Source: an uncultured Verrucomicrobiae bacterium (GTDB lineage Bacteria > Verrucomicrobiota > Verrucomicrobiia > Chthoniobacterales > Chthoniobacteraceae). From it: a DNA stretch of 64,000 bases. The stretch is from contig CAWGMG010000017.1 in the NCBI GenBank assembly GCA_963823615.1, positions 52,730 through 116,729 on the forward strand, read 5' to 3'. Position 1 is the stretch's first letter, and the number at the start of each line of letters is the position of its first letter. The translations under genes were made by a program, and so were the position numbers. This document shows, in pieces, positions 4,659 to 58,843 of the stretch. The notes below the pieces were generated by a model that was given only the letters and a program-made list of their open reading frames with translations, searched no databases and was not told the origin of the DNA.

Positions 4659-5993
4659 AAGACATCAAACTGTTTCTAATGTTGCTGCTCGTGGCACCTG
4701 CGTCGCTCCTTGGCGGGACGTGGCTCTCCACAAAGACATTGAGTTGTTTCCGACGCAACCCTCCGGCGGCTGGTCCTTGACGCTGCCACCTAAAGGGGCG
4801 GCGGACTTCACGGTCGCATTCAAGCCGCTGAAAGTCAACGGCATCACCTACGTGTACAAGGACAAATCGGCCACGATCAAGATTACGGGTGACAATAAGG
4901 ATGTAATGTGGACAATGAGCAGTAATACGGCGGCAGCACTGCTCAATCCCAATTCGATCGCGGCGACGACCACAGCCGTCGTTACGGGGATCTGGGTGCC
5001 GGAGGGGGCGCGGGGCCGGGAGGCGGATCAGGGCCAAGCAGCATCACGGGTACAGCCACCGTCATCGGTGTCACACTTGACACCAAAGAGTGTGTTACTT
5101 GGCAAATCGATCCCAACGTGCAAAAAACGGACGGCAGTAGCGCCATCACGTACATCGCCACGGTCTACAAAGCCGATGGAACCGTGAAGGAAGATGCGCA
5201 ACTGACCTCGGTAGTCCCAATCGAGGTAAGATCGGAGTTCAATGGGCGTCCGCCACCTCCTTGGATTTCTAAATCGGACAGCCGAGCAAAGGGCGTAGCT
5301 TGGGGCGAAATCGTCTGTCCATTCCCGGCCTCTTCTAACGGAAAACTGCAACTAAGCTATGATGGGAAGACCTCCAATAGTCCATTACTTACGTTTATTC
5401 TTCCAGTGCAGATCTTATTTAAGACGAGCGGGACAATAATAAACGATCCGGAATACGTCGGGTATAAATACGCCGTGGTATATGGGCAGGGCGAGAACCT
5501 CGGGCCGTTGCCTATGGGGAGAGGGCGAGCCGAACACCCATCCTCTTACACCGCTCCGTTGATGGCCATGGCAAAGGTTCCGACTTTGCCAGGAATTAGC
5601 TTTCATTGGGTGCGACTTGTAACCCTAAGATCTTGGTTTTTTCAATTCGATCAGAACGGTAAATGCCAGGTGCTTTTCAGGACTGCTTTGAAGGGTCCTA
5701 CGCCGGACATTAATACGATGGAAGTCGTGCAGAATACGCCGAGTCCGCAGACTGGAAATATCTACATTTGGGATAACCCTGCAACGGACCCTTCTTACCA
5801 GCATCCCCCGGTGGGCGTGTACATTTACGAAAAGAAAAATTTCTACTATGCTGTGTACGACAATATAGCCACCCGGTTGCTTCCGCGGTGTTGTCGCAAA
5901 GCGCGTTCGTCCGTCGGATCGCCGGGACAGCGATCTTTACAAGCGATTATCAAGGCATCCAAAACCTCTTGCAGGTTGGAGAAGTTAGCATGA
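4655..5993 (+). CDS. hypothetical secreted protein, split over three frames (signal peptide 4655-4783; 4720-5187; 5118-5993)
   Basis: Signal peptide MKDIKLFLMLLLVAPASLLGG in frame 2 runs into the 4720 ORF and then the 5118 ORF; consistent with indel errors; low-GC island. Confidence 0.35.
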
Positions 5994-19350: not shown

Positions 19351-19956
19351 GGCTGGGGATAGCCAGGAAAAGCCTACTTTCGCGAGGCGAATTGAGCCAG
19401 CCCAAATAACCCTTCGTGCGGCTTCCGAAGCGGCAGAGAACCGGCCGCAGGCAAGGTGCGGTTACCTGCATGAGGACCGCCGCGTGCGGGTGGCGGCTGA
19501 TGGCAGGGCTGCGAAGACCGCGCCCGCTCAGGCGTGACCCTGATTGCGAGCCGCCGGACGAAATAAAAGTGAAACACTTTTCCAATAGGAGTTGTGAGAA
19601 TCGGTGATTGAATCTTGGGGTGCTCACCGTGCCCTCATCCTCCCGGCAGGCTCAGAACCTCTGGCCCACCGCGGCAGCTGCGCAGTCGCCAAAGGCCCCT
19701 GAGCTTGCCGGCTGGGGAGTGCGTGCGCGGCCGCGCGGCCATGAATGCCGGGGGCCGAACCAGGGCCACGATCGATCGCAAACCGCTCCTGCCCGCGCAA
19801 GCGGCGGAGCACGCCAAACTCCACGCTGCTTCACGTGGTCCGCACAGTCCTCTGTGCGGTCGCCGCTTTCCGGGAAGATCGTCAGTGGCCGCGTTCGTTG
19901 TCTCTCGTTTGAAGCGGCTTCCCATAAAGCCGCGAAAGTCACGCTCGCCCACGCTT

Positions 19957-20590
19957 CCTCTGAGACCGATTCCCGAAATTCCCGAAATGCGCCCCCCACC
20001 ACTCAGCCGACGGCGTAAACTGTGCAAGCCTTCCCGAAACTCACCGCGCCTGCGTTTTTCCTCTGAGACCGATTCCCGTAATTCCCGAAATGCACCCACT
20101 CCCACCCGCTCAGCCGCGGCGAAAACCGTGCAATCCTTCCCGAAACTCCGCCGCGCCCGCGCTTTTCCTCTGAGACCGTTTCCCGTAATTCCCGAAATGC
20201 ACCCACTCCCACCCGCTCAGCCGCGGCGAAAACCGTGCAATCCTTCCCGAAACTCCGCCGCGCCCCGCGTTTCTCCTCTGAGACCGATTCCCGTAATTCC
20301 CGAAATGCACCCACTCCCACCACTCAGCCGGTGGCGAAAACCGTGCAATCCTTCCCGAAACTCCGCCGCGCCCCGCGTTTCTCCTCTGAGACCGATTCCC
20401 GTAATTCCCGAAATTCACCCGCTCCCACCACTCAGCCGGCGGCGAAAACCGTGCAATCCTTCCCGAAAATCCGCCGCGCCCGCGTTTTTCCTCTGAGACC
20501 GATTCCCGAAATTCCCGAAATTCACCCACTCCCACCATTCAGCCGGCGGCGAAAACCGTGCAATCCTTCCCGAAACTCGCCGGGCCAAAC
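19957..20590 (+). repeat. tandem array, 6 units of ~103-109 bp (unit starts ~19957, 20060, 20167, 20275, 20383, 20490)
   Basis: Unit cctctgagaccgattcccgtaattcccgaaatgcacccactcccacc..gcgaaaaccgtgcaatccttcccgaaactccgccgcgcc.. repeated with few substitutions; unit lengths are not multiples of 3. Confidence 0.9.
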
Positions 20591-20717
20591 CCGGTTGCCA
20601 ACCGCCTGTGATGCGGTAAAGTGCCCGCGCCCTTCAAGACACGCTTTCCTTCGACGTATTTTGCTAAGGCGCAACGCGTTCCCCGATTGACCTTCTGTAG
20701 AAAACACCCAGTCCCCC

Positions 20718-22352
20718 GTGTTCTCCAAAGCCTCCTTCTTTCTCGTCGGTTTCCTCGCGCTGGCCGGTCTGGCGCGGGCGGATGAGCCGCTGCATGTGCG
20801 CGTCGATCAGCTCATCGAAAAGCAGGCCGAGGGGCAGCCGATCGCGCCGCTCGCCGGCGACGCGGAGTTCCTGCGGCGGGTCTATCTCGATTTCGCCGGA
20901 GACCTTCCCACCGCGGCGGAGGCGCGCGCTTTCCTCGATGACCAGGCGCCGGACAAACGCGAGCAATTGCTCACGAAACTCCAGGCGGCCCCGCGCTTCG
21001 CGGAGCGACTGGCCGATGCGCTGAATGTGATGCTGATGGAGCGCCGCGGTGAGGACGCCGCGTGGCGCAAGTATCTCCAGGATTCGTGCACAGCGGGCAA
21101 GCCGTGGGATGTGATGGCAAAGGAGATGCTCGCCCCGGATTACGCAAATTCCGAGCTGAAGGGCGCCGGCTATTTCACCGTGCGCCGGCTGGAGAAGGTC
21201 GGGCAGCAGACAACGGATTATCCCGGCCTGACGCGCGATGCGGGGCGGATGTTTCTCGGCGTCGATCTCCAGTGCTGCCAGTGCCACAATCACCTCACGG
21301 TCAAGAGCTACAAGCAGGTCGATTTCAATGGGCTGTTCGTCGCCTTTCAAAACATCAAGCTCGAGGGCGCGGAGGGCAAGGCCATGAAGGTCCGCGAAGC
21401 GCCGCTGATGGCGAAGTACGATTTCGTCTCGGTGCTGACCAAAGTCGCCGGCCAGACCGGGCCGCGCATCCCCTTCGGCGAGGAGATCGAGATTCCCGAT
21501 CCGAAGTCCGACGACTACTGGGAAGTGAAGCCCGACCCGAAGAAGAAGGAGGTCGGAGTGGCGAAGTTCAGCCCGCTGAAGGAGATCGCCCAGCGCATCG
21601 CGACGAAGGAAAATCCGTGGTTCGTGAAGAACATCGCCAATCGCATGTGGTGGCTGCTCATGGGCCGCGGCATCGTGGAGCCGCTGGATTTGCATAACCC
21701 TGCCAATCCGCCCTCGCATCCCGAGTTGCTCGATCTCCTCGCCCAGGAAATGGCCGCGCACGATCTCAGCCTGCAATGGCTGCTCAAGGAGCTGTCGCTC
21801 ACGAAGACTTATCAAAGGACGAGCGTTCTGCCGGAGCCGGAGGCCCTGAGCTTGTCGAAGGGGGGCAAGGCGCCGCCGGAAAACCTGTTCCTGGTCGCCA
21901 AGGAGCGCCCGCTCTCGTCGGAGCAATTGGTCCGCGCGTTCCTGCGCGCCACCGGCGAGTACGACGCGGCGGCCGTGGCCGATGCGCCGAAGGGCCACGC
22001 GCTGGCGGATTTCGACAAGGCGTTTCGCGGCGCGTTTGCCAATGCACCCAAGGAGCCGGAGTTGACGGTGAACCCGACGCTCAAGTCCGCGCTTTTCCTG
22101 CGCAACAGCGACCTCGTTCTCTCCACCGTCAAGCCCGAGCATGGCAACCTCGTCGAACGGCTCGTCGCGGTCACTGACCCGAAGGCGCTCGCCGAGGAGC
22201 TGTATCTAACCATCCTCACGCGCCTGCCCACCGCGGAGGAAACGGCGGAGGTCAGCGTGTGGATCGAAAAGCATGCGTCCGATCGCCCGAAGGCGGTGGG
22301 TCATTATGCATGGGCTCTGCTGAGCTCTGAAGAATTTTTCTCCAATCATTAA
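20718..22352 (+). CDS. DUF1549/DUF1553 (PSCyt-type) domain protein
   Basis: Signal MFSKASFFLVGFLALAGLARA; CCQCHNHLT motif; typical partner of DUF1501 in PVC genomes. Confidence 0.85.
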   Translation: MFSKASFFLVGFLALAGLARADEPLHVRVDQLIEKQAEGQPIAPLAGDAEFLRRVYLDFAGDLPTAAEARAFLDDQAPDKREQLLTKLQAAPRFAERLADALNVMLMERRGEDAAWRKYLQDSCTAGKPWDVMAKEMLAPDYANSELKGAGYFTVRRLEKVGQQTTDYPGLTRDAGRMFLGVDLQCCQCHNHLTVKSYKQVDFNGLFVAFQNIKLEGAEGKAMKVREAPLMAKYDFVSVLTKVAGQTGPRIPFGEEIEIPDPKSDDYWEVKPDPKKKEVGVAKFSPLKEIAQRIATKENPWFVKNIANRMWWLLMGRGIVEPLDLHNPANPPSHPELLDLLAQEMAAHDLSLQWLLKELSLTKTYQRTSVLPEPEALSLSKGGKAPPENLFLVAKERPLSSEQLVRAFLRATGEYDAAAVADAPKGHALADFDKAFRGAFANAPKEPELTVNPTLKSALFLRNSDLVLSTVKPEHGNLVERLVAVTDPKALAEELYLTILTRLPTAEETAEVSVWIEKHASDRPKAVGHYAWALLSSEEFFSNH

Positions 22353-47559: not shown

Positions 47560-50067
47560 TCACATCTCTTCCGACTCCAGATCGACCAGGATTTCGCGCG
47601 GCTTGGCGCCTTCGCCGGGGCCGACGTAGCCGCGCATTTCCATGATGTCGAGGATGCGCGCGGCGCGCGTGTAGCCGAGCCGCAGCCGGCGCTGGAAGAG
47701 CGAGGTCGAGGCCTTCTTTTCCTGGCGCATGACCTCGTAGCATTTCTCCACGAGCTCCTCGTCCTCGGCGCTGACTTCCTCCTCTTCGTCCTCGCCGTCG
47801 CCTTCGAGCTTCTGATGGATGGCGCTCTCGAACTGCGGCTCGCCTTGCGCGGAAGCGTGCTCGACGACGCGGCGGACTTCGTCGTCGGAGACGAGCACGC
47901 CTTGCGCGCGGACCATGCGCGAGGTGCCCGGCGGCCGGTAGAGCATGTCGCCCATGCCGAGGAGCCGCTCGGCGCCGTTTTCATCGAGAATGACGCGCGA
48001 ATCGAGCGCCGACGCGACCTGGAAGGCGATGCGGCACGGGACGTTCGCCTTGATGACGCCGGTGATGACATCGGCGCGCGGCGTCTGCGTGGCGATGATC
48101 ATGTGGATGCCGGCGGCGCGCGCCTTTTGCGTGATGCGCGCGATGGCGCTCTCCACGTCGGCCGGCGCGGTCTGCATGAGGTCCGCCAACTCGTCGACGA
48201 TGATGACGATGTACGGCATCTGGTCGGGGACGATGAGGTCCATCTCGCGCGAGTTGCGCTGCTTGCCCATGTTCGTCACGCGCTCCTCGGAGGTGAGCGT
48301 CTCGGGGTCGACCGGCGCGGGTTCCACCGCCGGCGCGAGCGGGTCGAGCAGCGAGTCGTCGAAAAGCGCGGCCTGGCCCTTCTCGGCATCGAGCTCCTTT
48401 TGCGTCTTCGTCTTCGGCCGCGCGTTGAAGCCGCCGATATTGCGCACGCCCGTCTTGGCGAAAATGGCGTAGCGCTTTTCCATTTCATCGACCGCCCACT
48501 TCAGCGCGAGCAGCACCTTCTTCGGATCGGTGACGACCGGCACCACGAGGTGCGGCAGCGTATTGTACATCTGCATTTCGACCACCTTCGGGTCGATCAT
48601 GATGAAGCGCAGATCCTTCGGCGTGAACCGGTAGAGAATGGAGGAGATGATCGAGTTGATGCAGACGCTCTTGCCCGAGCCGGTGGTGCCGGCGACCAGG
48701 CCGTGCGGCATCGCGGCGAGATCGGCGATGATCGTCTTGCCGTAGACGTCCTTGCCGAGCGCGATCGGGATTTTGCACTTGGTCGAGTGAAATTCCTCGC
48801 TCTCCAGCAGCTCGCGAAAGGCGACCTTCTGCTTCTTGCAGGTTGGCGATCTCGATGCCGACGGTGTCCTTGCCGGGGATCGGCGCGAGGATGTTGATCC
48901 GCTCGGCGCGGGTGGCGCGCGCGATGTCGCGCTCGAGCGCGGTGATGCGATCGACGCGGACGCCCTTCGCCGGGTAGACCTCGTAGCGCGTGATGGTCGG
49001 GCCGCGCGTGATGTCGCCCGCGCGAGACCTCGATGCCAAACTGCGCGAGCGTCTCGATGATGACGACCTGCAGCGCCTTCAGCTCCTCCGGGATCGGCCG
49101 CCTGCCGGCTCGCGAGATCGAGCGGGTCGAGCAGATCGAACGACGGCATGCACGTAGTTCTCGCAGTCGACGCTCGCGAGGGTCGGGCGTCTCCTCGGGC
49201 TTCTCGCGCTTGATCCGCGGGAGCGGCGGCACGCTGGCATCGAAGATGACCGGCTCCGGCCGCGCCGGCTCGAGCGGGCTCCGCCGGTGCGTCGACCGGC
49301 GCGGGGATGACGAGCGTCTCCGCCTCGGCCTCGGGCGAACCGACGCGCACGGTGTTTTTCTTGAGCCGCTCCTTCGCTTCCTTCGCCGTCGGCGGCGTCA
49401 GCGCGCGCAGCTTCAGCGCCTCCTCCCTCGCCTTCGCCGCCGCGCGGGCTTCGCGCCAGGCGTGGACGCGCTCCGGCACGCTGCCGGCATACGCCAGGCT
49501 GCGCCGCAGGAGCGACACGGGCTGCAAGCCGGTCAGCAGCACGAGGCTGATGACGTAGAGCAGCGTGCAAATGATGAGCCCGCCGATGTGGCCGACGACC
49601 GCGTGCAGGAAATCGCCCGCGATCCATTTCCCGAGCCACCCGCCCTCGCCCGGCAGCCCGAGCCGGCGCGCATCGAGCACCGACCACGGCAGCAGATGGA
49701 GCAGGCAGGCGCCCGCGACGACGAAGACCGCCGCCCAGACCGCGCGCATGGAGAGCCGGAGGCTCGGCGAGAGCAGCTTGGCCCCGCCGCACCCGAGCAG
49801 GATCGCGGTGAAGAGATAAGAGGCCGCCCCGAGCAGCGAATACGACAGGCAGGCCATGATGGCCCCGAACGGCCCGATGAAGTTGCTGGAAACCCGCGCC
49901 GACCGCGCCACCGAGGCGAGCGGGAACCACGTGGGGACATCGTTCGGGGCGTAAGAGACGAGCGAGAGGAAGAGGAGGGTCCCGATGCCGAGCAGCACCA
50001 GGGCGACGACTTCGCTGTAGATGTGGTGCTCGCGGATGCGGGCGAGAGAGGTCTTGGAGGTCGCCAT
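47560..50067 (-). CDS. ftsK: DNA translocase FtsK/SpoIIIE (multiple internal frameshifts ~48480-49060)
   Basis: N-terminal TMs MATSKTSLARIREHHIYSEVVALVLLGIGTLLFL..; Walker A LVAGTTGSGKSVCIN; ..MIIATQTPRADVITG..; gamma domain RRLRLGYTRAARILDIME; middle part spread over 3 frames. Confidence 0.85.
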   Translation of the reverse strand: MATSKTSLARIREHHIYSEVVALVLLGIGTLLFLSLVSYAPNDVPTWFPLASVARSARVSSNFIGPFGAIMACLSYSLLGAASYLFTAILLGCGGAKLLSPSLRLSMRAVWAAVFVVAGACLLHLLPWSVLDARRLGLPGEGGWLGKWIAGDFLHAVVGHIGGLIICTLLYVISLVLLTGLQPVSLLRRSLAYAGSVPERVHAWREARAAAKAREEALKLRALTPPTAKEAKERLKKNTVRVGSPEAEAETLVIPAPVDAPAEPARAGAAGAGHLRCQRAAAPADQAREARGDARPSRASTARTTCMPSFDLLDPLDLASRQAADPGGAEGAAGRHHRDARAVWHRGLARATSRAARPSRATRSTRRRASASIASPRSSATSRAPPAPSGSTSSRRSPARTPSASRSPTCKKQKVAFRELLESEEFHSTKCKIPIALGKDVYGKTIIADLAAMPHGLVAGTTGSGKSVCINSIISSILYRFTPKDLRFIMIDPKVVEMQMYNTLPHLVVPVVTDPKKVLLALKWAVDEMEKRYAIFAKTGVRNIGGFNARPKTKTQKELDAEKGQAALFDDSLLDPLAPAVEPAPVDPETLTSEERVTNMGKQRNSREMDLIVPDQMPYIVIIVDELADLMQTAPADVESAIARITQKARAAGIHMIIATQTPRADVITGVIKANVPCRIAFQVASALDSRVILDENGAERLLGMGDMLYRPPGTSRMVRAQGVLVSDDEVRRVVEHASAQGEPQFESAIHQKLEGDGEDEEEEVSAEDEELVEKCYEVMRQEKKASTSLFQRRLRLGYTRAARILDIMEMRGYVGPGEGAKPREILVDLESEEM

Positions 50068-50180
50068 ACGTGTCTTCGGCGGGGAGTTATTCACAATTGT
50101 GAGCGAGGTTGGCGAGCAGGAAGCGCGAGACAGAAATGCCGCCGGCGGCTGAGGGGAATTTTGCACATTTTGCAAAGGGG

Positions 50181-50414
50181 TCTCAGAGGAAGAGCGGGCG
50201 CCGTGGCGCCGGAGGCCCTGAGCGTGGCGAAGGTGCCGCAGGCCCTGAGCCGGTCGAAGGGTTTCGGGAAGGTTTGCGCAGTTTCGCGGGACGCTGGACG
50301 AGGCATTTCGGGAATTTCGGGAATCGCGCTCAGAGTAAGTGAAGGAGCCGGCGAGAGGAGGCTGAGGCGAGGTTTCGGGAAGGAATGCGCAGTTTTCACG
50401 GGAGTGGCTGGGCG
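50181..50414 (-). repeat. tandem repeat array (same family as 19957-20590, inverse orientation), part 1: ~2 units ending at the intron 3' junction
   Basis: rc units ..cgaaatgcctcgYccagc..gaaaactgcgcattccttcccgaaac..; terminal palindrome module at 50155-50189. Confidence 0.85.
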
Positions 50415-52498
50415 AGGCATTTCGGTAGAGTAGGCGGGAAGCGACGGATTGAGAGGCACACGGCCAATGACCGTCTGCTTCCCGCCCCTCATCAAACCGG
50501 ACAGGCGGTTTTCCCGCATCCGGCTTTCCGAGTTCCATTCTCGAAAAGCGCTGTCTCATGTGCATGGGGTCGGCATTTTGTAGAGCCCGTATTGCGTGAA
50601 GAGTTCCCGATTTGCCCAGCGTTTGTATTTGCCACAGGGATTGCCGTGCTTGCGCCATAACCACTGCCGGAGGCGGTGGGCCACGAAGGTATTCAGTTGC
50701 CCGAAGCTCCGATGGTACTGGGCGAGGGCAAAGAAATTGCCCCAGCCACGGGTCACTTGGTTGATTTCACGCACGACTTCCTCGGTCGCTCTCCACACGG
50801 AGCGCGCGTGGGTTAGCTCGCGCACCCGGTCGCGGAGCGCCTGCCCCTCGGCGGGCTCGGGGCCTTGAGCTTGTCGAAACGGCTCCGCTTCCGGGCTGGG
50901 CTCGATGTGCACGTACGCCGTCTTCTTCTTGGATTGTTGCCAGCGGAAGCTGAAGCCGAGGAACTCAAAACCGCTTTCACGGCTCTGGAGCACTTCGGTT
51001 TTCTTCTCGTTGAGGGCCAGGCCGCGGCTTTGCAGCCAGCGGGCCAGCCGCTCCTTCATGCCCGCTCCTTGCCCGGTTCCGCAGAGGATGACCAGATCGT
51101 CCGCAAAGCGGACCATCCACGGCTTTTGCCGGCACTGTTCATTGACCCCTTCATCCAGCGGATGCAGGTAAATGTTGGCCAGCAGGGGCGAGATGACGCC
51201 TCCCTGCGGTGCGCCGCAGGGGTTGGCCTTCATCTTCCGCCCGCCGCCTTTCTCCTCCTCCATCACCGGGGCGCGCAGCCATCCTTTGATGAGCTGGAGG
51301 ATCGTCCCGTCCCTCACCCGCCGCGCCACCAGCCGCAGCAGTTTCCCGTGCGGGATCGTGTCGAAGTACTGCGCCAGATCGGCGTCCACTACCGAGGAGG
51401 CGGAGGGGACAAGGGAGGTTGCAGGGCGGGCGAGCCCTTCGGTGCGGCCACTGCGCAGCCCCTGCCGGATCGCCTCCACCGCCCCGTGCGCTCCACGCCC
51501 GGGCCGATAGCCGAAGGAGAGCGGATGGAAGTCCGCCTCGAAAATCGGCATCAGCACCAAGGACACGGCCATCTGCACCACGCGATCCTTCACCGTCGGG
51601 ATGCCCAACCGGCGCACCCCTCCATCGGGCTTCGCGATCTCCGCCCGGAGCACTGGCGCCGGCCGGTACGTCTTGGCGCGCAACTCCTCCCGCAGCGCCT
51701 CCAGCCACGCCACTTCCTTTTCCTGATCTGCCGCAAGGTCCGCAATCTCCACTCCAGCAACCCCCGCGACCCCGCCATGGGCCTTCACGCGCCGCCACGC
51801 TGTCTCCAGCACATCGGCGCGCTGCACCTCTCCATACAGACTCCAGAACCGGGAGCCCGGACTGGACTTCGCTTTCCGATACAGCGTGATTTGCAACTGC
51901 CGAACCTTTTTGGGTGCTGGTAGCTCCTGCGAGCCGTCACCACGGCTCGCCCGGGACCCTGCCGCCACTTGTCCCGTGCGCCGCCGCCTCGGTCCTTCGT
52001 TGCGCTTCACTTCTGCGGAACAAGTGGCGTCCCTTTGCTCCCCCATGTTTTCTCCGAACCAGAGGTCCAGCATGGGATCAACGCTACTACGAACGCCTCC
52101 GACTTCTGCCGTGGCCGCACGGCCTCCCTCTTTCGGAGAGGTTGGGCCGCTTGTTGAGTCAGGTTTACTCGCCATGGCAGATCTCCCCGTTTACCCGCAC
52201 ATCACTTCGCGACATGTCGTCCACGCCGACCCCGCCGGTCTAATATCCCCACCCGCGACGGTTGGTCTGGGTGCGGACTCTTCGGCCTTCGCCCAAATTC
52301 CAGGGGCTCGGCTGCCGGGAGTATCCTTTCGAGGCTCATTTATGTGGTTCATATGGTTATTACGACCTGCCGGTTCGACTCCATGCCTGCTCCCCACCCC
52401 GCCTCGCGGCGACGCAGTTGGCACGGTCTTCGGTGCTGAACCGTCTAAGTGCACCGGCGGGACTTGCACCCGCGTTGATGTGCGCTTTGCGGGCGCAC
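50415..52498 (-). mobile_element. group II intron (2084 nt) with intact RT/maturase ORF
   Basis: 5' end GUGCGCCCG (rc of 52490-52498); domain V aaGCCGGAugCGGgaaaaCCGccugUCCGGuu (rc of 50481-50516); domain VI GGGCGGGAAGC..GCUUCCCGCC then ..uacucuac 3' end at 50415; IEP ORF lies between. Confidence 0.85.
50556..52175 (-). CDS. group II intron-encoded reverse transcriptase/maturase (true start probably at an internal Met, ~52046-52073)
   Basis: RT0-RT7 motifs: ..VLETAWRRVKAHGGVAGVAGV.., IAKPDGGVRRLGIPTVKDRVVQ, FADDLVIL (YADD variant); maturase/X domain; C-terminus GNPCGKYKRWANREL. Confidence 0.85.
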   Translation of the reverse strand: MASKPDSTSGPTSPKEGGRAATAEVGGVRSSVDPMLDLWFGENMGEQRDATCSAEVKRNEGPRRRRTGQVAAGSRASRGDGSQELPAPKKVRQLQITLYRKAKSSPGSRFWSLYGEVQRADVLETAWRRVKAHGGVAGVAGVEIADLAADQEKEVAWLEALREELRAKTYRPAPVLRAEIAKPDGGVRRLGIPTVKDRVVQMAVSLVLMPIFEADFHPLSFGYRPGRGAHGAVEAIRQGLRSGRTEGLARPATSLVPSASSVVDADLAQYFDTIPHGKLLRLVARRVRDGTILQLIKGWLRAPVMEEEKGGGRKMKANPCGAPQGGVISPLLANIYLHPLDEGVNEQCRQKPWMVRFADDLVILCGTGQGAGMKERLARWLQSRGLALNEKKTEVLQSRESGFEFLGFSFRWQQSKKKTAYVHIEPSPEAEPFRQAQGPEPAEGQALRDRVRELTHARSVWRATEEVVREINQVTRGWGNFFALAQYHRSFGQLNTFVAHRLRQWLWRKHGNPCGKYKRWANRELFTQYGLYKMPTPCT

Positions 52499-53210
52499 GG
52501 AATTACGGGAATCGGTCTCAGAGTAAATGAGGGAGCCGGGTGAGCCGGAGGCCCTGAACCTGTCGAAGGGTTTCGGGAAGGAACGCGCAGTTTTCGCGGG
52601 ACGCGTGGGCGTGAATTTCGGTAATTTCGGGAATCGCGTTCAGAGTAAATGAGGGAGCCGGTGAGCCGGAGGCCCTGAGCCTGTCGAAGGGTTTCGGGAA
52701 GGATTGCGCAGTTTCGCGGGACGCGTGGGCGTGAATTTCGGTAATTTCGGGAATCGCGTTCAGAGTAAATGAGGGAGCCGGTGAGCCGGAGGCCCTGAGC
52801 CTGTCGAAGGGTTTCGGGAAGGTTTGCGCAGTTTTCGCGGGACGCGTGGGCGTGAATTTCGGTAATTTCGGGAATCGGGCTCAGAGTAAATGAGGGAGCC
52901 GGTGAGCCGGAGGCCGTGAGCCTGTCGAAGGGTTTCGGGAAGGTTTGCGCAGTTTTCGCCGGTTCCGGTCGTCCCATTCTTCCCCTGCTTCCCGTCCCCG
53001 CGCCCGGTCCGCGACCAATTTCGGTAATTATGGGAATCACCCTCAGAGCGAATGAGCAGATACGGAGGGTAGTTTCGGAACAGATTGCGCAGTTTCGCGG
53101 GAAAGATGGCAGCGCGAGTTTCGGTAAGTGTGGGAATCGCCCTGAGAGTGAATGAAGGACGCGGAGTGGCATTTCGGGAAGGATTGCGCGGTTTCGCGAG
53201 ACGGCGGCCC
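52499..53210 (-). repeat. tandem repeat array part 2: ~4 near-identical 120-121 bp units (starts 52499, ~52613, ~52733, ~52854) then ~2-3 degenerate units
   Basis: Unit gaatttcggtaatttcgggaatcgcgttcagagtaaatgagggagccggtgagccggaggccctgagcctgtcgaagggtttcgggaagg(a/t)ttgcgcagttt(t)cgcgggacgcgtgggcgt. Confidence 0.9.
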
Positions 53211-53685
53211 GCGGATGCGGGAATGTGGCAAGCGGTTCGACCGATCGTGCGGCACAAGCGGTGCCCTCCCGGGAACGCCAATCTCGCGATTGGCGCAGCT
53301 GGCGGTTCACGCAGCTGGCGGTTCAAGGAGTCGGGGCGCCCTCGCCCCGAGTTTCTGGCCCGCGCCGCGCTGCGGGCCGCGGCGGCCGCGACTCGCCAGC
53401 GGAAGATTGGCGTTCCGAGGGGGCGCCTTGCGCAGCGCGCGCCCGACCCGCGGCGGCAGTGACACCGCTGGGTCGGAGACGGGGGTGAAGTGGCGAGCGG
53501 CCCAATGCGCATTCCGCCATGCTACCACAGGTTCTCGAATTCTGTGTTCCATACACGAAGATGTTGTGAGCGCCTGCGTGGGAGCCAATTTTTGCCTACT
53601 CGAGACTCGCGTCATCGTCGTGTTCCACAACTACTCTCACGTTTTCGACATTTTCGGCAAGCGGCTCCGTGAAGGGCCCCACAAA

Positions 53686-53773
53686 GGGTGGAACCGCCAA
53701 GACGCCAAGGCGCCAGGAAAAGCTGATGGATCGTGGTCTTCCTTGGCGTCTTGGCGTCCTGGCGGTTCCACCC
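53686..53773. repeat. ~32-bp imperfect inverted repeat (about 29/32 pairing) with 23-nt loop; strong hairpin
   Basis: gggtggaaccgccaagacgccaaggcgccagg ... ccttggcgtcttggcgtcctggcggttccaccc. Confidence 0.7.
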
Positions 53774-53962
53774 TTTTGATTCCGGCTCTGTCGGGGTTAG
53801 GCATCTCGGTGCAGCGACCTGAACAGCCAACGAAATGACTCGAATTGAAACGAATGGTTTGCAGCCTTCCGTATTCGATTCAATTCGGCGTGATTCGTTG
53901 GCCCTCGCGCTTGCCTTCACTGGCAGACTCAGGCTCAATCCCAGCCACCTCCGGGACCGCTC

Positions 53963-56928
53963 ATGGCATATCGTTTCGATGTCGCATTCTCCTTCGCCGG
54001 CCCTCACCGCGAGAAGGTGCGGGCCATCGCCGAGCTTGTCGCGGCGAAGCTCGGGAAGAAGCGCGTTTTCTTCGACGAGTGGTACCGAGCGGAAATCCTC
54101 GGGGGGAATATGCGCGTGCTGCTCCAGCGTATCTATGGAGAGAAAAGTCTCATGGTTGTCGCGGATCTTTCGCAAGACTACGCCGATCGGCCTTGGAGTC
54201 AGGGCGAAAGCGAGGCCATCGATGCTCTGCGGATGCGAATCGACTCGGCGCGCGACGAGACCGCGCGCCTGCGGGTGTTCATCGTGCGCTTCGGTCCCGG
54301 CGAGGTGCCTGGCGTCTTGGAAAACACCGGCTGGCTCGATGGCGCAGCCCTCTCCGTGGAAGAAATCGCCGGCGCGATTTTGGAGCGACTCGACCTGCTC
54401 AATGAACGCATGGGCGAAAGCGCCACCCCTGCCCCGCCACCGCCGGTCCCCTTGGCTCCCTCTCTTCCAGCGTCCCCCTCTTCCGCTCCGCCGATCCTCT
54501 TCTTTCACCCCGCTACCAACGACGCCCTCTACTCCCGGCGCGAGCGCGAGTTGGACTGGCTCGACGAGTGCGCGAAAAATCCCGCAATCCGCATCGCCAC
54601 CGTCACCGGCGTCGGTGGGCTGGGGAAGACCTCGCTCGTCGGGCATTGGATCGAGAAGGCGCGCGGCTGGCAGCATCGCGCCTTTCACGGCGTGTTCTTC
54701 TACAGCTTCTATTCCGATCGCGACCCGAAGCATTTCTTCGCGGCGTTCCTCCAATTCGTCTGCGAGCAGGAGAAGATCGAGGCCCTTCCTCCGGATCGTC
54801 CGCTCCATCATCTTGCGGCCGCAGCGGTGCGCAAGTGGTGCTACCTCGTGGTGCTCGATCGGCTCGAGGTGCTCCAGCACGACGAAAGCGATCCGCACTA
54901 CGGCTGGATCAACGACGGCGCGCTCAATGAATTCGTCGCGCGCGCCGGGGCGGCGGGGCCTTCGCTGCTCGTGCTCACCAGCCGCTTCCCCTTCCCGGAA
55001 GTCACGCGCGAGCATCCCGAGGCCGCCCGCGCGTGCGAGCTGCCCCTGCTTACCGACGACGAAGGCGCCGACCTGCTCGCCCATTGCGGTCTCGACGGCG
55101 GGCGGGAGAAGCTGCGCGGCTACAGCCATCAATTTGGCGGGCATCCGCTCGCGCTGCGGCTCTTTGCCGGCGCGTGCCTCGCGCAGCCCTTCGATGAACC
55201 GGAGACGGTGAGCCGGCACTTGCTCGCGGCAGGTGCGGAGGCGGGCGAAGAGGACGCGCATCGCCGGCAGTTCCGCAAGCTGCTGCTCTGGCTGCAAAAG
55301 AAACTCCCCGTAGAAAAGCGCCGACTGCTCCAGCTCGTCGCGCTCTTTCGCGAGCCGGTGCCCACAGCCACGCTCGCCGCGCTCGCCACGGGGCTCGATG
55401 CGATGAAGGCGGACTTCGGCGATTGCGACGCTGCGCGTCTCCTTTTCCTCCTTGATGCCCTGGTGCGTGATCAGTTTACTCCAGCGCGAGGAAGCGCCCG
55501 GCAGCGACACCGCCCGCTGGGCGGCGCATCCCATTGTGCGCGAGGTCTTCCGCGTCGAGGCACTGGCGTCTGGCGACACGGTCGCGCAGCAGTTTGCCGG
55601 GATCGTCGCGGGAAAGGGGGCGGGCCGCGCGCCCCGGAGCGTGGCGGAATTGCAGCCGATTCTGGAGGCGATCGAGTTGCTCCTCGCTGCGGGGGATTTC
55701 AAGTCGGCCGATGAGGTGTATCGCGGGCGGTTGGAGAATGGTGACGTATTCAAATGGATTCCCGCCCCGCATGAGGGGCTGCATTGCGCGCGGGGATTCA
55801 TCGAGCCGCAGGAACGTCGCGCAACGCTGGAGCAATTGGTCGGGCGGGAAGCGACAGCGCGCTACTTCAACGCTGTGGCGGGTCTTGGAAGCATTGTTGG
55901 CGAAATGGACCGGGTGGAGAGCCTGTATATTGAAATGCGCTACCTCTACACGGTCGAGTGCAATTGGAACGCCATCTCCGGTAGTTTCCAAAGCCTCGCG
56001 GCGGTTCAAACACTTCGCGGGATGCTGCGAGAGGCGGTCGCGCGCGCGAACGAGGCTCTCGCTTTTTGCGGGATCCAAGCAGTGAGGACATCTTGGAACG
56101 TCCCGCCCCTCCATCCAACGGACAAGCTGAACATTTTGATCGATAAAGATTTAAACTGCACTTCCCTCGCATACCGGGCAAACGCGCTTTCACTCGCGGG
56201 GGAATTGCCCGCCGCCGGTCGTGACTTTGCTTCGTCCGATACGCTCCAGCGCTTGGGTCACCGCGAAAACGTCGCACTTCACTCGCTCCGGGGCATCCAG
56301 TGGTGCCGCCATTGTCTGCGCCTCGGCGAGGCGGACGGCGCCCGCCGCCTCGCTGAGGCAAATTGGAGCGATCTGCGCGCGGAATCAATGGACCGCCGAC
56401 CTCGCCGCGTGCGACCTCCTCCTCGGTGAACTCGATTTCGCAGCGGGCGACCGCGATTCCGCCGAACAACGAATCGGCGCGGCCGTGCGGATCTTTCGCG
56501 AGGCCCGGCAGGGGATGGACCTCCCTGACGCGCTGCTCGCGCAGGCGCGGCTGCGGGGGAGCATTGAGGATTGCGAAGAGGCGCTGCGGCTCGCGGCCCG
56601 GAGCGGCTTTGCGCTGAAGCAGTGCGACGCCCTGAATCTCCGCGCCCGTCTCCGGCGTGAGGCCGGCCAGCCCGCCGACGCCGCCAAGGATGCCCGCGAC
56701 GCGCTCGATATCGCCGAGCGGTGCGGCTACTACTGGGGCCGGCATGAAGCCTTGCGCCAGCTTCGCGATGTCGCGAAGGCGCTCGGGAATCGCGCGGATG
56801 AGAGGCATTGGGACGAAGCCGAAAAGGCGCTGGCTGCGCGCATGAAGCCGGAGGTCGAAGAGGCGCTGCGGATCAATCGCGAGCACGATGCGGAAATGGA
56901 GCGGCTTTACGGAAGGCCGAAGCCGTAG
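53963..56928 (+). CDS. TIR - NB-ARC (STAND P-loop NTPase) - TPR protein, NLR-like; split over 3 frames (shifts ~55440 and ~56250)
   Basis: TIR: FDVAFSFAGPHREKVRAIAELVAAKL..VFFDEW..SLMVVADLSQDYADRPWSQGESEAI (conserved Glu present). P-loop IATVTGVGGLGKTSLV; hhhhD LVVLDRLE; LLVLTSRF; C-terminal TPR-like repeats to ..ERLYGRPKP. Confidence 0.7.
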
Positions 56929-57248: not shown

Positions 57249-58337
57249 ATGCCTCGCAGCTTGCGCATCCAGTACCCCGGCGCGTTTTATCACGTCATGG
57301 CGCGGGGCAATGGACGGGCGGATATCTTTCGCGGCGATGCGGACCGGACGCTTTTTCTCCGCACGCTCGGCGAAGCCTGTGGGCGGACCGGCTGGCGCGT
57401 GCACGCCTGGGTGCTGATGCGCAATCACTACCATGTGGTGCTGGAAACGCCGGAGCCGAATCTGGTCGAGGGGATGCAGTGGCTGCAGAATGCTTACACG
57501 CGGCGCTTCAACACGCGGCACCGCGGCTGGGGCCGGTTATTCGGCGACCGCTACAAGGCGGTGCCCGTGGAGGGGGAAGGGTACTACTACGAGACGCTGC
57601 TGAAATCGCGGGCGCATCACGCGCGCAGTCCGAATACCGTGGAGGGGGAAGGGTACTACTACGAGACGCTGCTGGATTACGTCCACCTGAACCCGGCGCG
57701 CGCGGGGTTGATTCCGATGGCCAGCGGCGGAAGTCTGCGCGACTACCCGTGGAGCAGCGTGGCGGCCGGATACGCGCTGCCGCCGGGGCGCCGGGCGAAA
57801 TGGCTCGCGGTGGAGGACGGCCTGGCGAGCTTTGGCTGCGGCGATACGGCGGCTGGCCGCCGCAGTTTTGTCGCGCGGCTCGATGTGCGCGCTCTGGAGG
57901 AGCCGCGAGCCAAGACGGGCTTGCCGGCGCTCGATCCGGAGCGTGACCGGCGGAGGAGCACGCTGGCGGACGGCTGGTACTGGGGGAGCCAAGCCTTCGC
58001 GGAGCGTCTGCTGGCGCTGGGGGAAGCAGTGATCGGACGTCCCGGGCACCGATCCGCGCGGAGTACGCAGGAGAAGCGCGCGCATGGCGAACTGGTCGCC
58101 CGCGAGCTACTCGAGGAAGGGCTCCGCCGGGCGAAGCTGACCCGTGAAGAGCTCCCCGCTCTTCCTGGGAGCGATCTGCGCAAAGTGGCGCTCGCCAGCG
58201 CGATCTGGGAGCAAACCATTGTGAGCATGGCATGGCTGGCGGAGCATCTGGCGATGCGGAGCGCGGCCAATGCGAGCCAGCAAATTCGCCGCTACCGGCT
58301 GGCCCAGGCCAAGCCGCTGTCAAGAAATGTCGCCTGA
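57249..58337 (+). CDS. IS200/IS605-family Y1 (HUH) transposase, RAYT-like N-domain fused to DnaA-C-terminal-like HTH domain
   Basis: AFYHVMARGNGRADIF..HAWVLMRNHYHVVLETPEPNLVEGMQWLQNAYTRRFN (HuH = HYH; catalytic Tyr in NAYTRRFN); C-terminus SDLRKVALASAIWEQTIVSMAWLAEHLAMRSAANASQQIRRYR resembles DnaA domain IV; internal 36-bp perfect direct repeat 57567-57602 / 57639-57674. Confidence 0.75.
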   Translation: MPRSLRIQYPGAFYHVMARGNGRADIFRGDADRTLFLRTLGEACGRTGWRVHAWVLMRNHYHVVLETPEPNLVEGMQWLQNAYTRRFNTRHRGWGRLFGDRYKAVPVEGEGYYYETLLKSRAHHARSPNTVEGEGYYYETLLDYVHLNPARAGLIPMASGGSLRDYPWSSVAAGYALPPGRRAKWLAVEDGLASFGCGDTAAGRRSFVARLDVRALEEPRAKTGLPALDPERDRRRSTLADGWYWGSQAFAERLLALGEAVIGRPGHRSARSTQEKRAHGELVARELLEEGLRRAKLTREELPALPGSDLRKVALASAIWEQTIVSMAWLAEHLAMRSAANASQQIRRYRLAQAKPLSRNVA

Positions 58338-58481
58338 CCCCTATGTTTAAGTGACCCCTATGTTTAAGTTCCCATCTCGCTATTTAAAACACCCGATGTC
58401 TGGCTCGTCGCCGGCGTCGCTTATGGTATCGCGACAGGTGAGAACGACGCTTTTACGGGCGAGGCATTATCAAAGCCATTT

Positions 58482-58715: not shown

Positions 58716-58797
58716 GCACATGGGGGTCAGCACATGGGGGTCAGCACATGGGGGTCAGCACATGGGGGTCAGCACATGGGTCAGCACATGGGGGTCA
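58716..58797 (+). repeat. tandem 14-bp repeat cacatgggggtcag x~6, an amplification of a unit present once at 57199-57212
   Basis: cacatgggggtcagcacatgggggtcagcacatgggggtcagcacatgggggtcagcacatgggtcagcacatgggggtcag. Confidence 0.85.
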
Positions 58798-58843
58798 GGC
58801 GACATTTCTTGACAGGCCGGGTGGGTTTTCGTGAAATCGTCGC

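Follow-up and report, generated by a model that had tools for sequence, protein, structure and literature searches.

Architecture of the region upstream of ftsK

We analyzed a 64-kb stretch of a Chthoniobacteraceae (Verrucomicrobiota) genome, hereafter called the window, together with a handful of related contigs. The Pfam matches listed in Table 1 confirmed the ftsK assignment made in a first-pass annotation of the same DNA. The gene on the far side (53963-55714), which that annotation had called TIR-NB-ARC, gave only weak matches to TIR_2, NACHT, and AAA_16 (E ~1e-3, below the Pfam cut-offs). The two genes are apparently divergent, and the intergenic region between them contains, starting from ftsK, a conserved block, a tandem repeat array interrupted by a group II intron, a second conserved block, and a long inverted repeat. 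This inverted repeat corresponds to the strong hairpin that had already been noticed beyond the far end of the array; it sits between the distal conserved block and the TIR/STAND-like gene, and in the orthologous locus L107 the corresponding position holds a long inverted repeat that differs from it.

Table 1. Positions of the repeat arrays, the intron, and the associated features in the window
Feature	Position	Strand	Details
Sister array	19955-20586	+	6 units; period 107; 93% matches
Sigma-70-like promoter	20595-20622	+	TTGCCA-16-TAAAGT; immediately downstream of the sister array's last unit
ftsK CDS	47560-50067	-	835 aa; ATG at 50067; Pfam FtsK_4TM, FtsK_SpoIIIE, FtsK_gamma
ftsK-proximal conserved block	50068-50124	-	GCTTCCTGCTCGCCA at 50110-50124; ATTGTGAATAACTC at 50084-50097
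Last, variant module A	50155-50188	-	CTCTGAGACCCCTTTGCAAAATGTGCAAAATTCC
Proximal minisatellite part	50155-50424	-	3' part of unit 6, from CGAAATGCC; unit 7, 50397-50287; unit 8, 50286-50155
Group II intron	50425-52498	-	2,074 nt; starts GTGCG at 52498; ends ...CTAC at 50425
Intron-encoded protein	50556-52046	-	496 aa, intact; RT and maturase (X) domains
Domain I hairpin with exon-binding loop	52291-52306	-	CCCC-TGGAATTT-GGGC; GGAATT predicted to pair with the 5' exon
Distal minisatellite part	52499-53196	-	unit 1, 53196-53098; unit 2, 53097-52958; units 3-5, 52957-52596; 5' part of unit 6, 52595-52499
Distal conserved block	53507-53579	-	ACGCAGGCGCTCACAAC...GTATGGAACACAGAATTCGAGAACCTGTGGTAGCATGGCGGAATGCGC; conserved in the window, L107, and L108
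Long inverted repeat	53683-53776		arms 53683-53720 and 53739-53776; 38 nt, 89% complementary; 18-nt loop

The interval 50181-53210 had been read as a single tandem array. Tandem units were indeed present far beyond chance, but the array is not continuous: 2,074 of the 3,030 bases, or two thirds of the interval, belong to a group II intron inside unit 6 that had gone unrecorded. The repeat proper, which makes up about one third of the interval, consists of 53196-52499 and 50424-50155 on the minus strand and comprises eight units (~0.96 kb) in the same orientation as ftsK, with a unit length of 99-140 nt once the intron is removed. TRF reported a period of 121 (3.8 copies, 96% matches, 52501-52959) and a period of 100 (1.8 copies, 79% matches, 53019-53198); if the source contig derives from short reads, the assembly may have collapsed some of the near-identical 121-nt units. 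In an identity matrix, units 3-5 reached 95-97%, unit 6 87-88%, and unit 7 81-82%, and units 1, 2, and 8 showed 56-72% identity to every other unit. The homogeneous center with degenerate edges described earlier was thus borne out, and this arrangement fits recent unequal exchange or slippage.

The ftsK-proximal end of the array had been singled out as a distinct terminal module ~90 nt from the ftsK start. Its distance was reproduced (88 nt from the ATG), but the module is a variant of the module A described below, in which TTCCC is changed to TTGCA or GTGCA. Such variants also occur in the orthologous arrays, at ~5482-5520, 5720-5755, and 5872-5905 in L107 and at 944-975 in L108.

An interspersed family of bipartite repeats

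Each repeat unit consists of module B (GAAAACYGYGCAATCCTTCCCGAAAC) and module A (CATTTACTCTGAnnnCGATTCCCRWAATTCCCGAAAT), in this order, each followed by a variable spacer. We found 11 matches to module A (0.00 expected) and 14 matches to module B (0.18 expected) in the window, all confined to the ftsK-upstream array and a sister array 30 kb apart. The 9-mer TTCCCGAAA, which forms three direct repeats per unit, occurred 26 times (0.63 expected), always within these two arrays. All the modules share one orientation. Outside the window, members of the family were found at L063, L113-L118, and L125, and the alternation of A and B with variable spacing was common to L063, L107, L108, L115, L116, L118, and L125, the spacer from module to module ranging from 7 to 155 nt. 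Judging from these contigs, the arrays lie in intergenic DNA of one sub-clade of the Chthoniobacteraceae.

Across loci and across genomes, modules A and B were much more strongly conserved than the spacers, and they are AT-richer than the genome (GC 0.49 vs 0.65). Because the modules are conserved while the spacers drift, some constraint is implied, and a purely neutral minisatellite does not explain the pattern. Candidates for such a constraint include the binding of a protein, a role at the RNA level, a need for the modules in spreading, and homogenization between copies.

The sister array points to a gene at 20718 annotated by Pfam as DUF1549/DUF1553 and, like the ftsK-upstream array, lies in an apparently divergent intergenic region, bounded on its other side by a minus-strand ORF starting at 19350. 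This ORF has no Pfam match and was assigned only on the basis of its codon bias and signal-peptide-like N-terminus. A promoter scan at the sister array found one sigma-70-like promoter (0.2 expected), for which the orthologous locus L125 has TTGCAA-16-TAAACT, with the hexamers retained and the spacer changed. The copy number in front of this gene is six units in the window, one in an orthologue with 93% protein identity, and zero in an orthologue with 72%. Together with the identity pattern of the ftsK-upstream units, the difference between six units and one at the orthologous locus agrees with the earlier suggestion of active homogenization; the arrays expand and contract quickly, most probably by unequal recombination or replication slippage. 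With head-to-tail units at several loci and a copy number that varies between close relatives, the family has the properties of a MIRU-like interspersed minisatellite or VNTR.

A group II intron with module A as its probable homing site

By its sequence features, the segment at 50425-52498 appears to be a complete group II intron with an intact RT/maturase. Domain V/VI gave a full-length model match to Rfam RF00029 (47.3 bits, gathering threshold 40; 50425-50528, minus strand). D1-D4 (52220-52466) matched RF02005 (group-II-D1D4-6) over model positions 1-225 of 225 with an E value of 1e-11, scoring 47.2 bits against a gathering threshold of 49, and this near-threshold match is the sole indication of the intron class. 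The encoded protein showed Pfam matches to RVT_1 (E 5e-30) and GIIM (E 3e-15), with FADD as RT motif 5 (~51092-51107), and no endonuclease domain was found in its 496 residues. Among database proteins, P0121 (496 aa) matches it at 100% identity, and P0122-P0129 and P0184 at 78-89%; the nearest solved structures are those of the group IIC-type RTs 7uim and 6ar1.

The intron interrupts module A of unit 6 between GATTCCCGTAATTCC and CGAAATGCC, and in silico excision rebuilds a perfect, complete module A. The intron occupies the same nucleotide at seven loci with unrelated flanks (the window and L113-L118), sharing the junction ...CGATTCCC(A/G)TAATTCC-intron-CGAAA..., so that all seven copies seen of the close intron lineage sit in the repeat at one nucleotide. 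In the window, the domain I loop GGAATT is the complement of the final 6 nt of the 5' exon (AATTCC), and the relatives at L115, L116, and L118 have the loop GGAATTA opposite TAATTCC. The L119 intron, whose protein shows 69% identity, carries a compensated stem (GCGG/CCGC) and the loop GTCAAG, which matches CTTGAC in its own, different 5' exon. The shared insertion point and these matches between loop and exon indicate that module A is probably the homing site of this endonuclease-less intron lineage. No terminator-like hairpin was found directly before the insertion site. Empty sites are present in the orthologous arrays of L107 and L108, which have no intron, and 5-7 apparently perfect homing sites are unoccupied in the window (array 1 and the unit at 50305-50341), suggesting that the intron may be barely mobile.

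Relationship of the arrays to ftsK and other downstream genes

The ftsK orthologues in L107 and L108 (80-82% identity) are preceded by an intron-free array at the same place with different unit numbers. All three orthologues with 57-58% identity, those of Chthoniobacter flavus and two other relatives, lack an array, and their upstream regions span only ~80-200 nt. The possibility that the array influences ftsK expression, for which the first-pass annotation had proposed a comparison of orthologous upstream regions, therefore received no comparative support, the array being either variable (80-82% relatives) or absent (57-58% relatives). Leaving phenotype aside, absence or variability among relatives is an outcome that the annotation itself had listed as refuting its idea. 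The array is probably dispensable for ftsK and would have no essential role; a regulatory effect on ftsK is unproven and would be at most modulatory.

The ftsK start codon and first codons are conserved in L107 and L108, and between the array and the ATG, the block GCTTCCTGCTCGCCA..ATTGTGAATAACTC..CCGAAGA.A.GTATG is kept in all three array-bearing orthologues (the window, L107, and L108), although the sequence flanking it is not. The block contains a putative promoter-like arrangement, TCGCCA-16/17-TGT-GAATAA, followed by a short 5' UTR. Because no canonical sigma-70 promoter was called for ftsK in the consensus scan, we can only infer a proximal ftsK promoter, and the block at 50068-50124 is the more likely site of this promoter and the 5' UTR. 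The distal conserved block, which is non-coding and unique in the window and showed no stable RNA fold (z = +1.0), holds an extended -10-like motif (TGGTAGCAT, 53519-53527) pointing through the array toward ftsK and is a putative promoter. Extended -10-like motifs were present upstream of both window arrays.

The gene downstream of the array could be read at four independent loci. At three of them, the array is directed toward a gene start at a distance of ~90-130 nt, namely that of ftsK, of the DUF1549 gene, and of an NMT1-family gene in L114, which hints at a promoter-related role; at the fourth, L118, it faces the 3' end of a convergent gene. The units could be upstream activating or operator sites, the number of which tunes adjacent promoters including that of ftsK, and the TTCCCGAAA repeats would then be bound by a DNA-binding protein or form bent, AT-richer DNA. 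The retention of the modules amid drifting spacers, their low GC content, the co-orientation at three of four loci, the apparently divergent setting of both window arrays, and the distance of 18-40 nt from the ends of the arrays to the promoter-like or conserved proximal blocks downstream are all consistent with such a cis-regulatory array. However, the 64 kb contains no isolated copy of the 9-mer outside the arrays, which is unlike a regulon operator, the downstream genes are unrelated in function, and one array faces a convergent gene. Moreover, the unit number falls from six to one to zero before orthologous genes, most ftsK orthologues have no array, and the ftsK-upstream array tolerates a 2-kb intron. 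Taking these points together, we regard a cis-regulatory array as unlikely.

RNA-level properties of the repeats

The arrays were judged to be non-coding because neither period, 121 or 107 nt, is divisible by 3. Over 23 units, no stable or conserved RNA fold was found on either strand, with a mean folding z-score of 0.02 for the sense strand and -0.37 for the antisense strand; on the sense strand, the 100-122-nt units, with one exception, had folding energies of -12 to -29 kcal/mol, and the 162-nt unit had -49 kcal/mol. The repeat had no Rfam match, even at E values up to 5. A scan of 49900-54000 detected no promoter-like sites (0.5 expected), hence none per unit, and one terminator-like site (4.4 expected), which is within the intron and not inside any repeat unit. 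The sense strand was rich in C, with a C/G ratio of 1.9-2.3 in both window arrays and L107, and the ratio in the modules was ~2.0-3.0 at all loci except L063 (1.43); the spacers of L063, L108, and L116 were not C-rich (C/G ~1). The plus-strand GC skew was +0.3 over the repeat parts only.

This composition raises the question of a role in a transcribed leader, in which the array would be transcribed from ~53519-53527 and its C-rich, G-poor, unstructured RNA would attenuate read-through into ftsK, acting either as a zone of Rho loading or insulation or as a platform to which proteins bind. Besides the C/G ratios and the skew limited to the repeat parts, the very weak sense folding with z near 0, the extended -10-like motifs upstream of both arrays, and the sense-oriented intron, which requires such a transcript, agree with this idea. 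Nevertheless, efficient Rho termination in units 1-5 would deprive the intron in unit 6 of transcription, the sister array is located upstream of a well-conserved promoter and not in its leader, and the spacers at three loci are not C-rich, making such a leader improbable.

In Nostoc, the NsiR1 array of tandem sRNA genes lies upstream of hetF, and each unit has its own promoter, conserved hairpin, and terminator. The present units of ~100-120 nt are likewise arranged in tandem immediately in front of a protein gene and in its orientation, and several GGGAA/AGGA motifs per unit can be read from the antisense sequence, as might be expected of NsiR1-like small-RNA genes or a CsrB-like sponge RNA with, for example, antisense GGA protein-binding motifs. 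In contrast to NsiR1, no unit promoter, hairpin, or terminator was found in our scans, neither strand had a stable or conserved fold, the spacing of the modules varies from 7 to 155 nt, and Rfam gave no match; tandem small RNAs are thus very unlikely, and a structured leader or riboswitch was rejected on the same promoter, terminator, folding, and Rfam results.

Several known repeat types were also tried and rejected. A MIRU-type repeat with an ORF in each unit conflicts with the two periods and with the apparently divergent intergenic location of the arrays, and REP/BIME-type palindromic repeats conflict with the single orientation of the modules and the lack of excess folding energy on either strand. 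A CRISPR array was excluded by the two alternating modules, the gaps of 7-155 nt, and the repetition of whole units, including the "spacers", at 95-97% identity; no cas genes were noticed among the ORFs examined.

Discussion

An assembly artefact, in which the array length or the intron position would stem from mis-joined repeat reads in a metagenome-assembled genome, might be suspected from the near identity of units 3-5, from the ~2-kb contigs carrying intron relatives, which are typical of assembly-breaking repeats, and from the common 5' flank and differing 3' flanks of L119-L121, but it is hardly credible with two exact intron-exon junctions that rebuild a full module A, variants of unit 6's own on both sides of the intron, and the identical insertion point found independently in six other contigs, and the assembly risk is real only for the copy number of units 3-5.

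We consider it probable that two elements are superimposed upstream of ftsK, namely, a hypervariable interspersed minisatellite and a dedicated group II intron that uses it as a homing site. The intron has probably entered unit 6 through base pairing of the domain I loop GGAATT with the AATTCC that closes the 5' exon, and it would integrate between ...AATTCC and CGAAA..., always in the sense orientation of the array. Expression of ftsK would most likely be driven by its own conserved proximal block (50068-50124). The distal promoter-like block (~53519-53527) may read through the array, and this read-through would supply the sense transcript that the intron requires for splicing and mobility.

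A bolder proposal is that the minisatellite and the intron are a co-evolving pair, with the retroelement creating and maintaining its own interspersed target family. The arrays would then serve as many harmless, sense-transcribed landing pads, where the RT would co-convert the flanking exon during retrohoming and the intron would subsequently be lost by recombination between neighboring units, so that module A, and hence whole units, would be seeded and homogenized at new loci. We give this proposal little credence; if true, it would account for the conserved modules with drifting spacers and for the occurrence, as observed so far, of the repeat and the intron sub-lineage in the same narrow set of Chthoniobacteraceae-like contigs.

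The minisatellite with its homing intron can be compared with several known systems. MIRU/VNTR loci of mycobacteria consist of 40-120 bp head-to-tail units at many intergenic loci, usually oriented like the adjacent genes and differing in copy number among close relatives; within operons, they contain small ORFs overlapping the stop and start codons on either side. The present arrays resemble them in their head-to-tail intergenic arrangement at many loci, gene-like orientation, and variable copy number among relatives, but differ in lying in apparently divergent regions upstream of promoters and in having bipartite units with spacers of free length and periods indivisible by 3. The BOX elements of pneumococci (boxA-boxB(n)-boxC) and the BIMEs of E. 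coli (REP arrays) are intergenic mosaics of short conserved modules, one of which can amplify in tandem, and at most a modulatory function is known for them. Their modules, BOX as well as REP, form palindromes or hairpins and, in BIMEs, alternate in orientation. The family described here is also an intergenic mosaic of short modules and a landing site for a mobile element, whereas modules A and B are asymmetric, keep one orientation, and have no hairpin potential. REP sequences are targets of mobile elements, and in Pseudomonas putida KT2440, two of the nine group II intron copies listed in a table are REP-associated (PMC1525189). By comparison, seven of the seven copies of the close intron lineage here lie in the repeat, at one nucleotide.

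The intron can also be set beside endonuclease-less introns with other targets. Class C (IIC) introns insert downstream of terminator hairpins or into the attC sites of integrons, and RmInt1 targets ISRm2011-2. The present intron shares with them the lack of an endonuclease domain, a harmless multi-copy target, and short exon-binding pairings, and its nearest solved RTs are of the IIC type; its target, however, is a tandem minisatellite module, not a stem-loop or an insertion sequence, and the pairing is 6-7 nt (GGAATT[A/T]).

For annotation, these results mean that an apparent 3-kb array before an essential gene is a short, probably dispensable minisatellite plus a presumably mobile intron, and the regulatory connection with ftsK that such an array suggests should not be passed on. 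The intron offers a clean example of a group II lineage specialized on one repeat module, with an exon-binding loop that co-varies with its target, and the system may be useful for studying how introns lacking an endonuclease choose their targets. A multi-copy, non-genic target would provide the intron with a natural safe haven. The interspersed repeat family is previously undescribed in the Chthoniobacteraceae, abundant yet poorly studied soil Verrucomicrobiota, and the system could reveal the ways in which tandem repeats and retroelements remodel intergenic DNA and cause metagenome assemblies to break.

Composition of the region upstream of ftsK

Direct reading of the sequence and Tandem Repeats Finder confined the true tandem repeats to the two ends of 50181-53210, an interval that the first-pass annotation had described as one array. 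A group II intron, which landed in one repeat unit, makes up 68% of it. Without the intron, the array consists of eight units extending from 53196 to 50155 on the minus strand, co-directional with ftsK, and the copy number of the near-identical units is possibly under-assembled. In each unit, module B (GAAAACYGYGCAATCCTTCCCGAAAC) comes first and module A (CATTTACTCTGAnnnCGATTCCCRWAATTCCCGAAAT) second, each with a spacer after it. Units 3-5 were 95-97% identical to one another, unit 6, which hosts the intron, was 87-88% identical to units 3-5, and the value for unit 7 was 81-82%; units 1, 2, and 8 shared 56-72% identity with all others. The earlier description of a homogeneous center with degenerate edges is thus correct for the repeat proper. 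The element at 50155-50188, previously regarded as a distinct terminal module, is present but represents a variant of module A, the final one of the array, with TTGCA/GTGCA in place of TTCCC, and the same variants were found in the orthologous arrays of L107 and L108, two contigs with close ftsK orthologues.

Modules A and B matched the window 11 and 14 times (0.00 and 0.18 expected, respectively), and the 9-mer TTCCCGAAA occurred 26 times (0.63 expected). All of these copies within the 64 kb, the extent of the source genome covered, fall within the ftsK array or a sister array located before a DUF1549/DUF1553 gene. The sister array occupies 19955-20586 (+) with six units of period 107, and one degenerate unit flanks it at 19918-19942. 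GC content is lower in the modules than in the genome (0.49 vs 0.65), and their array strand is C-rich and G-poor (C/G about 2), a bias that the spacers share in some arrays only.

Coordinates of features in the window and, where indicated, in related contigs
Feature	Position	Description
Tandem repeat	52501-52959	period 121, 3.8 copies, 96% matches (Tandem Repeats Finder)
Tandem repeat	53019-53198	period 100, 79% matches (Tandem Repeats Finder)
Short stretch bearing repeats	50200-50424	
Group II intron	52498 (GTGCG) to 50425 (...CTAC)	minus strand, 2,074 nt
Proximal block	50068-50124	between array and ATG; GCTTCCTGCTCGCCA ... ATTGTGAATAACTC ... CCGAAGA.A.GTATG
Distal block	53507-53579	about 75 nt; holds extended -10-like TGGTAGCAT, directed through array
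Putative sister-array promoter	20595-20622	sigma-70-like TTGCCA-16-TAAAGT, directly after last unit
Spacer motif CCCTTCGACAGGCTCAGGGC/GCCCTGAGCCTGTCGAAGGG	50200-50260, 52540-52580 and repeats of these; L063 7440-7462; L108 1030-1050	

Several other small elements accompany the arrays. The motif CCCTTCGACAGGCTCAGGGC and its complement GCCCTGAGCCTGTCGAAGGG recur in spacers of different arrays and genomes, and two further hairpin-like elements, GGAAGCGACGGCGCGCTTCC and CAGACGGCCCACAGGGCCGTGGCTACAACCGG, recur in related contigs. Between the distal block and the ftsK array lies an inverted repeat on GGAACGCCAATCT...AGATTGGCGTTCC (53265-53284 / 53404-53423); its GGGAACGCCAATCTCCCGATTGGCG motif, which recurs at the equivalent place in L108 (about 600-650), may represent a further family of small palindromic repeats. 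Intergenic DNA in this clade resembles a patchwork to which several families of small repeats contribute. Unrelated short tandem repeats are found at 58716-58798 (GCACATGGGGGTCA, 6.1 copies) and 58335-58369 (TGACCCCTATGTTTAAG, 2.1 copies), whose units have the reverse-complementary core TGACCCC / GGGGTCA in common.

The intron and its target site

By most of the defining features examined, the inserted element is a group II intron. Rfam placed domains V/VI (RF00029) at 50425-50528 on the minus strand with 47.3 bits (gathering threshold 40), and a more permissive search recovered D1-D4 (RF02005) in full length at 52220-52466 with 47.2 bits (E 1e-11), below the gathering threshold of 49. The intact ORF between the two matches encodes a protein of 496 aa with RVT_1 and group II maturase domains, in which a domain search found no endonuclease domain. 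This protein is 78-89% identical to many database proteins, and the closest solved structures are those of group IIC-type enzymes; its RT motif 5 reads FADD, not YADD. When the intron was excised in silico, GATTCCCGTAATTCC was joined to CGAAATGCC and a complete repeat module was restored. The window intron is about 133 nt longer than its closest relatives in L115, L116, and L118 (2,074 vs 1,939-1,941 nt), and in the alignment the sequences diverge beyond roughly intron nt 500, close to where the ORF starts.

Proteins 80-89% identical to the intron-encoded protein were found on short contigs. In every readable one (L113-L118), the insertion nucleotide in module A was identical (...CGATTCCC(A/G)TAATTCC / intron / CGAAA...), while the surroundings were unrelated and more A/B units often lay downstream, giving seven independent insertion sites with that of the window. 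A domain-I hairpin at 52291-52306 presents a loop, GGAATT(T/A), that complements the final 6-7 nt of the 5' exon. A related intron with a 69%-identical protein has compensatory changes in the stem, the loop GTCAAG, and a different target containing CTTGAC. Taken together, the seven sites at the same nucleotide, the loop-exon complementarity, and the compensated relative indicate that target choice is RNA-guided and that this intron sub-lineage is specialized on module A. The pairing loop may be either EBS1 or EBS2, internal direct repeats being present in module A as well as in the related intron's target. The three contigs that carry the related intron (L119-L121) have an identical 300-nt 5' flank and three different 3' flanks, which points either to chimeric assembly at a repeated element or to multiple copies lying downstream of a segment that was duplicated.

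The pairing site in units 1-5 of the ftsK array reads AATTAC or CTTAC instead of AATTCC, which would weaken pairing with the intron. Unit 7 and the six units of the sister array appear to be good target sites and carry no intron: the preferred target AATTCC/CGAAAT is found in 6/6 sister units, and sister units 2-5 are identical to the occupied site over GATTCCCGTAATTCC/CGAAATGC except for a single substitution, G(A>T)TTCCC, in unit 3.

Distribution and turnover of the repeat family

By its FtsK protein, the window belongs to Chthoniobacteraceae (Verrucomicrobiota). L107 and L108, metagenome contigs whose FtsK is 80-82% identical to that of the window, have an intron-free A/B array of the same type directly upstream of ftsK, with different unit numbers and unrelated spacers. 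In three more distant orthologues (57-58% identity), among them that of Chthoniobacter flavus, the upstream region spans only about 80-200 nt and contains no modules. Similarly, the array before the DUF1549/DUF1553 gene has six units in the window, one in the 93%-identical orthologue (with a 12-nt deletion in module B), and none at 72%. Additional arrays were found in L063, a contig of a Chthoniobacteraceae MAG, and in short soil-metagenome contigs. The repeat family is thus interspersed, restricted to a narrow clade, and subject to fast turnover. A module A scan of genome contigs gave nearly exclusively chance single matches, L063 being the only true relative among the matches listed; two scans of metagenome contigs returned 0 and 1 loci and a scan of viral contigs returned 0. 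No earlier account of the repeat family turned up in the literature searched.

Promoters, neighboring genes, and possible roles of the array

Besides the modules, the three ftsK orthologues (window, L107, and L108) retain a proximal and a distal block. The latter is unique to the ftsK locus and showed no RNA fold (z = +1.0). In the 93% orthologue, the hexamers of the putative sister-array promoter are kept and its spacer is changed. These positions suggest that the promoters of the downstream genes adjoin the arrays rather than lie inside them, and transcription from a putative distal promoter may also run through the ftsK array. The extended -10-like TTGTGAGAAT occurs at 19592-19601 (+), some 350 nt ahead of the sister array, at about 7128-7137 of L063, upstream of the array there in a similar sequence context, and at 22-31 of L125, the locus of the 93% orthologue.

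The ftsK array occupies what appears to be a divergent intergenic region, with ftsK on one side and a gene at 53963-55714 (+) on the other. The TIR-STAND (TIR-NB-ARC) label previously given to this gene is plausible but not firmly established, all Pfam matches being sub-threshold (TIR_2, E 8e-4; NACHT, 7e-4; AAA_16, 6e-4; ATPase_2, 5e-4). A TIR-domain gene is also located near ftsK in the distant relative L112. A further inverted repeat, whose 28-nt arms show 75% complementarity, occupies 53828-53900, shortly before the start of this gene at 53963.

The first-pass annotation proposed that the array could influence ftsK expression. In relatives the array is missing or varies, which counts against this proposal, and a conserved promoter-proximal block lies downstream of the array; a necessary role in ftsK expression is therefore unlikely. 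Two rival readings of low probability are that the array is a modulatory upstream element or that it acts at the RNA level in Rho loading or as an insulator. Both draw on the better conservation of modules A and B than of the spacers and on the orientation of the arrays, which aim at a nearby gene start in three of four loci, the array in the remaining one (L118) being directed at a convergent gene. The same two observations would accommodate a more speculative scenario as well: retrohoming with co-conversion of flanking sequence would spread and homogenize the modules.

Other readings of the units were rejected. A single folded RNA, or a promoter made of A plus B, is disfavored because the gap between the modules ranges from 7 to 155 nt. 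For 23 units from all loci, folding did not exceed that of dinucleotide-shuffled sequences on either strand (mean z 0.02 and -0.37), the repeat units had no Rfam match, the intron being the sole Rfam find in the region, and no tRNA or tmRNA was found in the window. A consensus scan detected neither sigma-70-like promoters nor intrinsic terminators within the units, and module A, judged by eye from its sequence, fits the sigma-54, ECF-type, and Bacteroidetes-type promoter consensus poorly. TTGTGARAAT was not enriched in the window (5 found vs 2.35 expected), with the same figures for the TTGTGAGAAT motif. A regulon operator is opposed by the 9-mer TTCCCGAAA, which has no single sites outside the arrays. 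The sequence TGCGCAAT in module B raised the possibility of a XerCD/dif-like site by ftsK, which was dropped as no XerD-arm-like half was seen on reading the sequence and the sister array has no connection with ftsK. A CRISPR-like array was rejected on the alternation of two modules and the duplication of entire units, and a coding repeat on the variable spacers and periods of 107 and 121 nt, indivisible by 3.

Discussion

The best-supported interpretation is that the array belongs to a hypervariable interspersed minisatellite whose many copies give a dedicated group II intron a harmless site for homing. As a repeat, it resembles MIRU/VNTR minisatellites and the modular interspersed repeats BOX and BIME, but it lacks the small ORFs within operons specific to MIRU and the palindromes of REP. 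As an intron, its partner resembles bacterial introns with dedicated non-genic targets: IIC introns target terminators or attC sites, and RmInt1 targets an insertion sequence. A partial association with REP is described for introns of P. putida (PMC1525189). The repeat and the intron are thus each of a known kind, and what is noteworthy is that a minisatellite module is paired with an intron dedicated to it.
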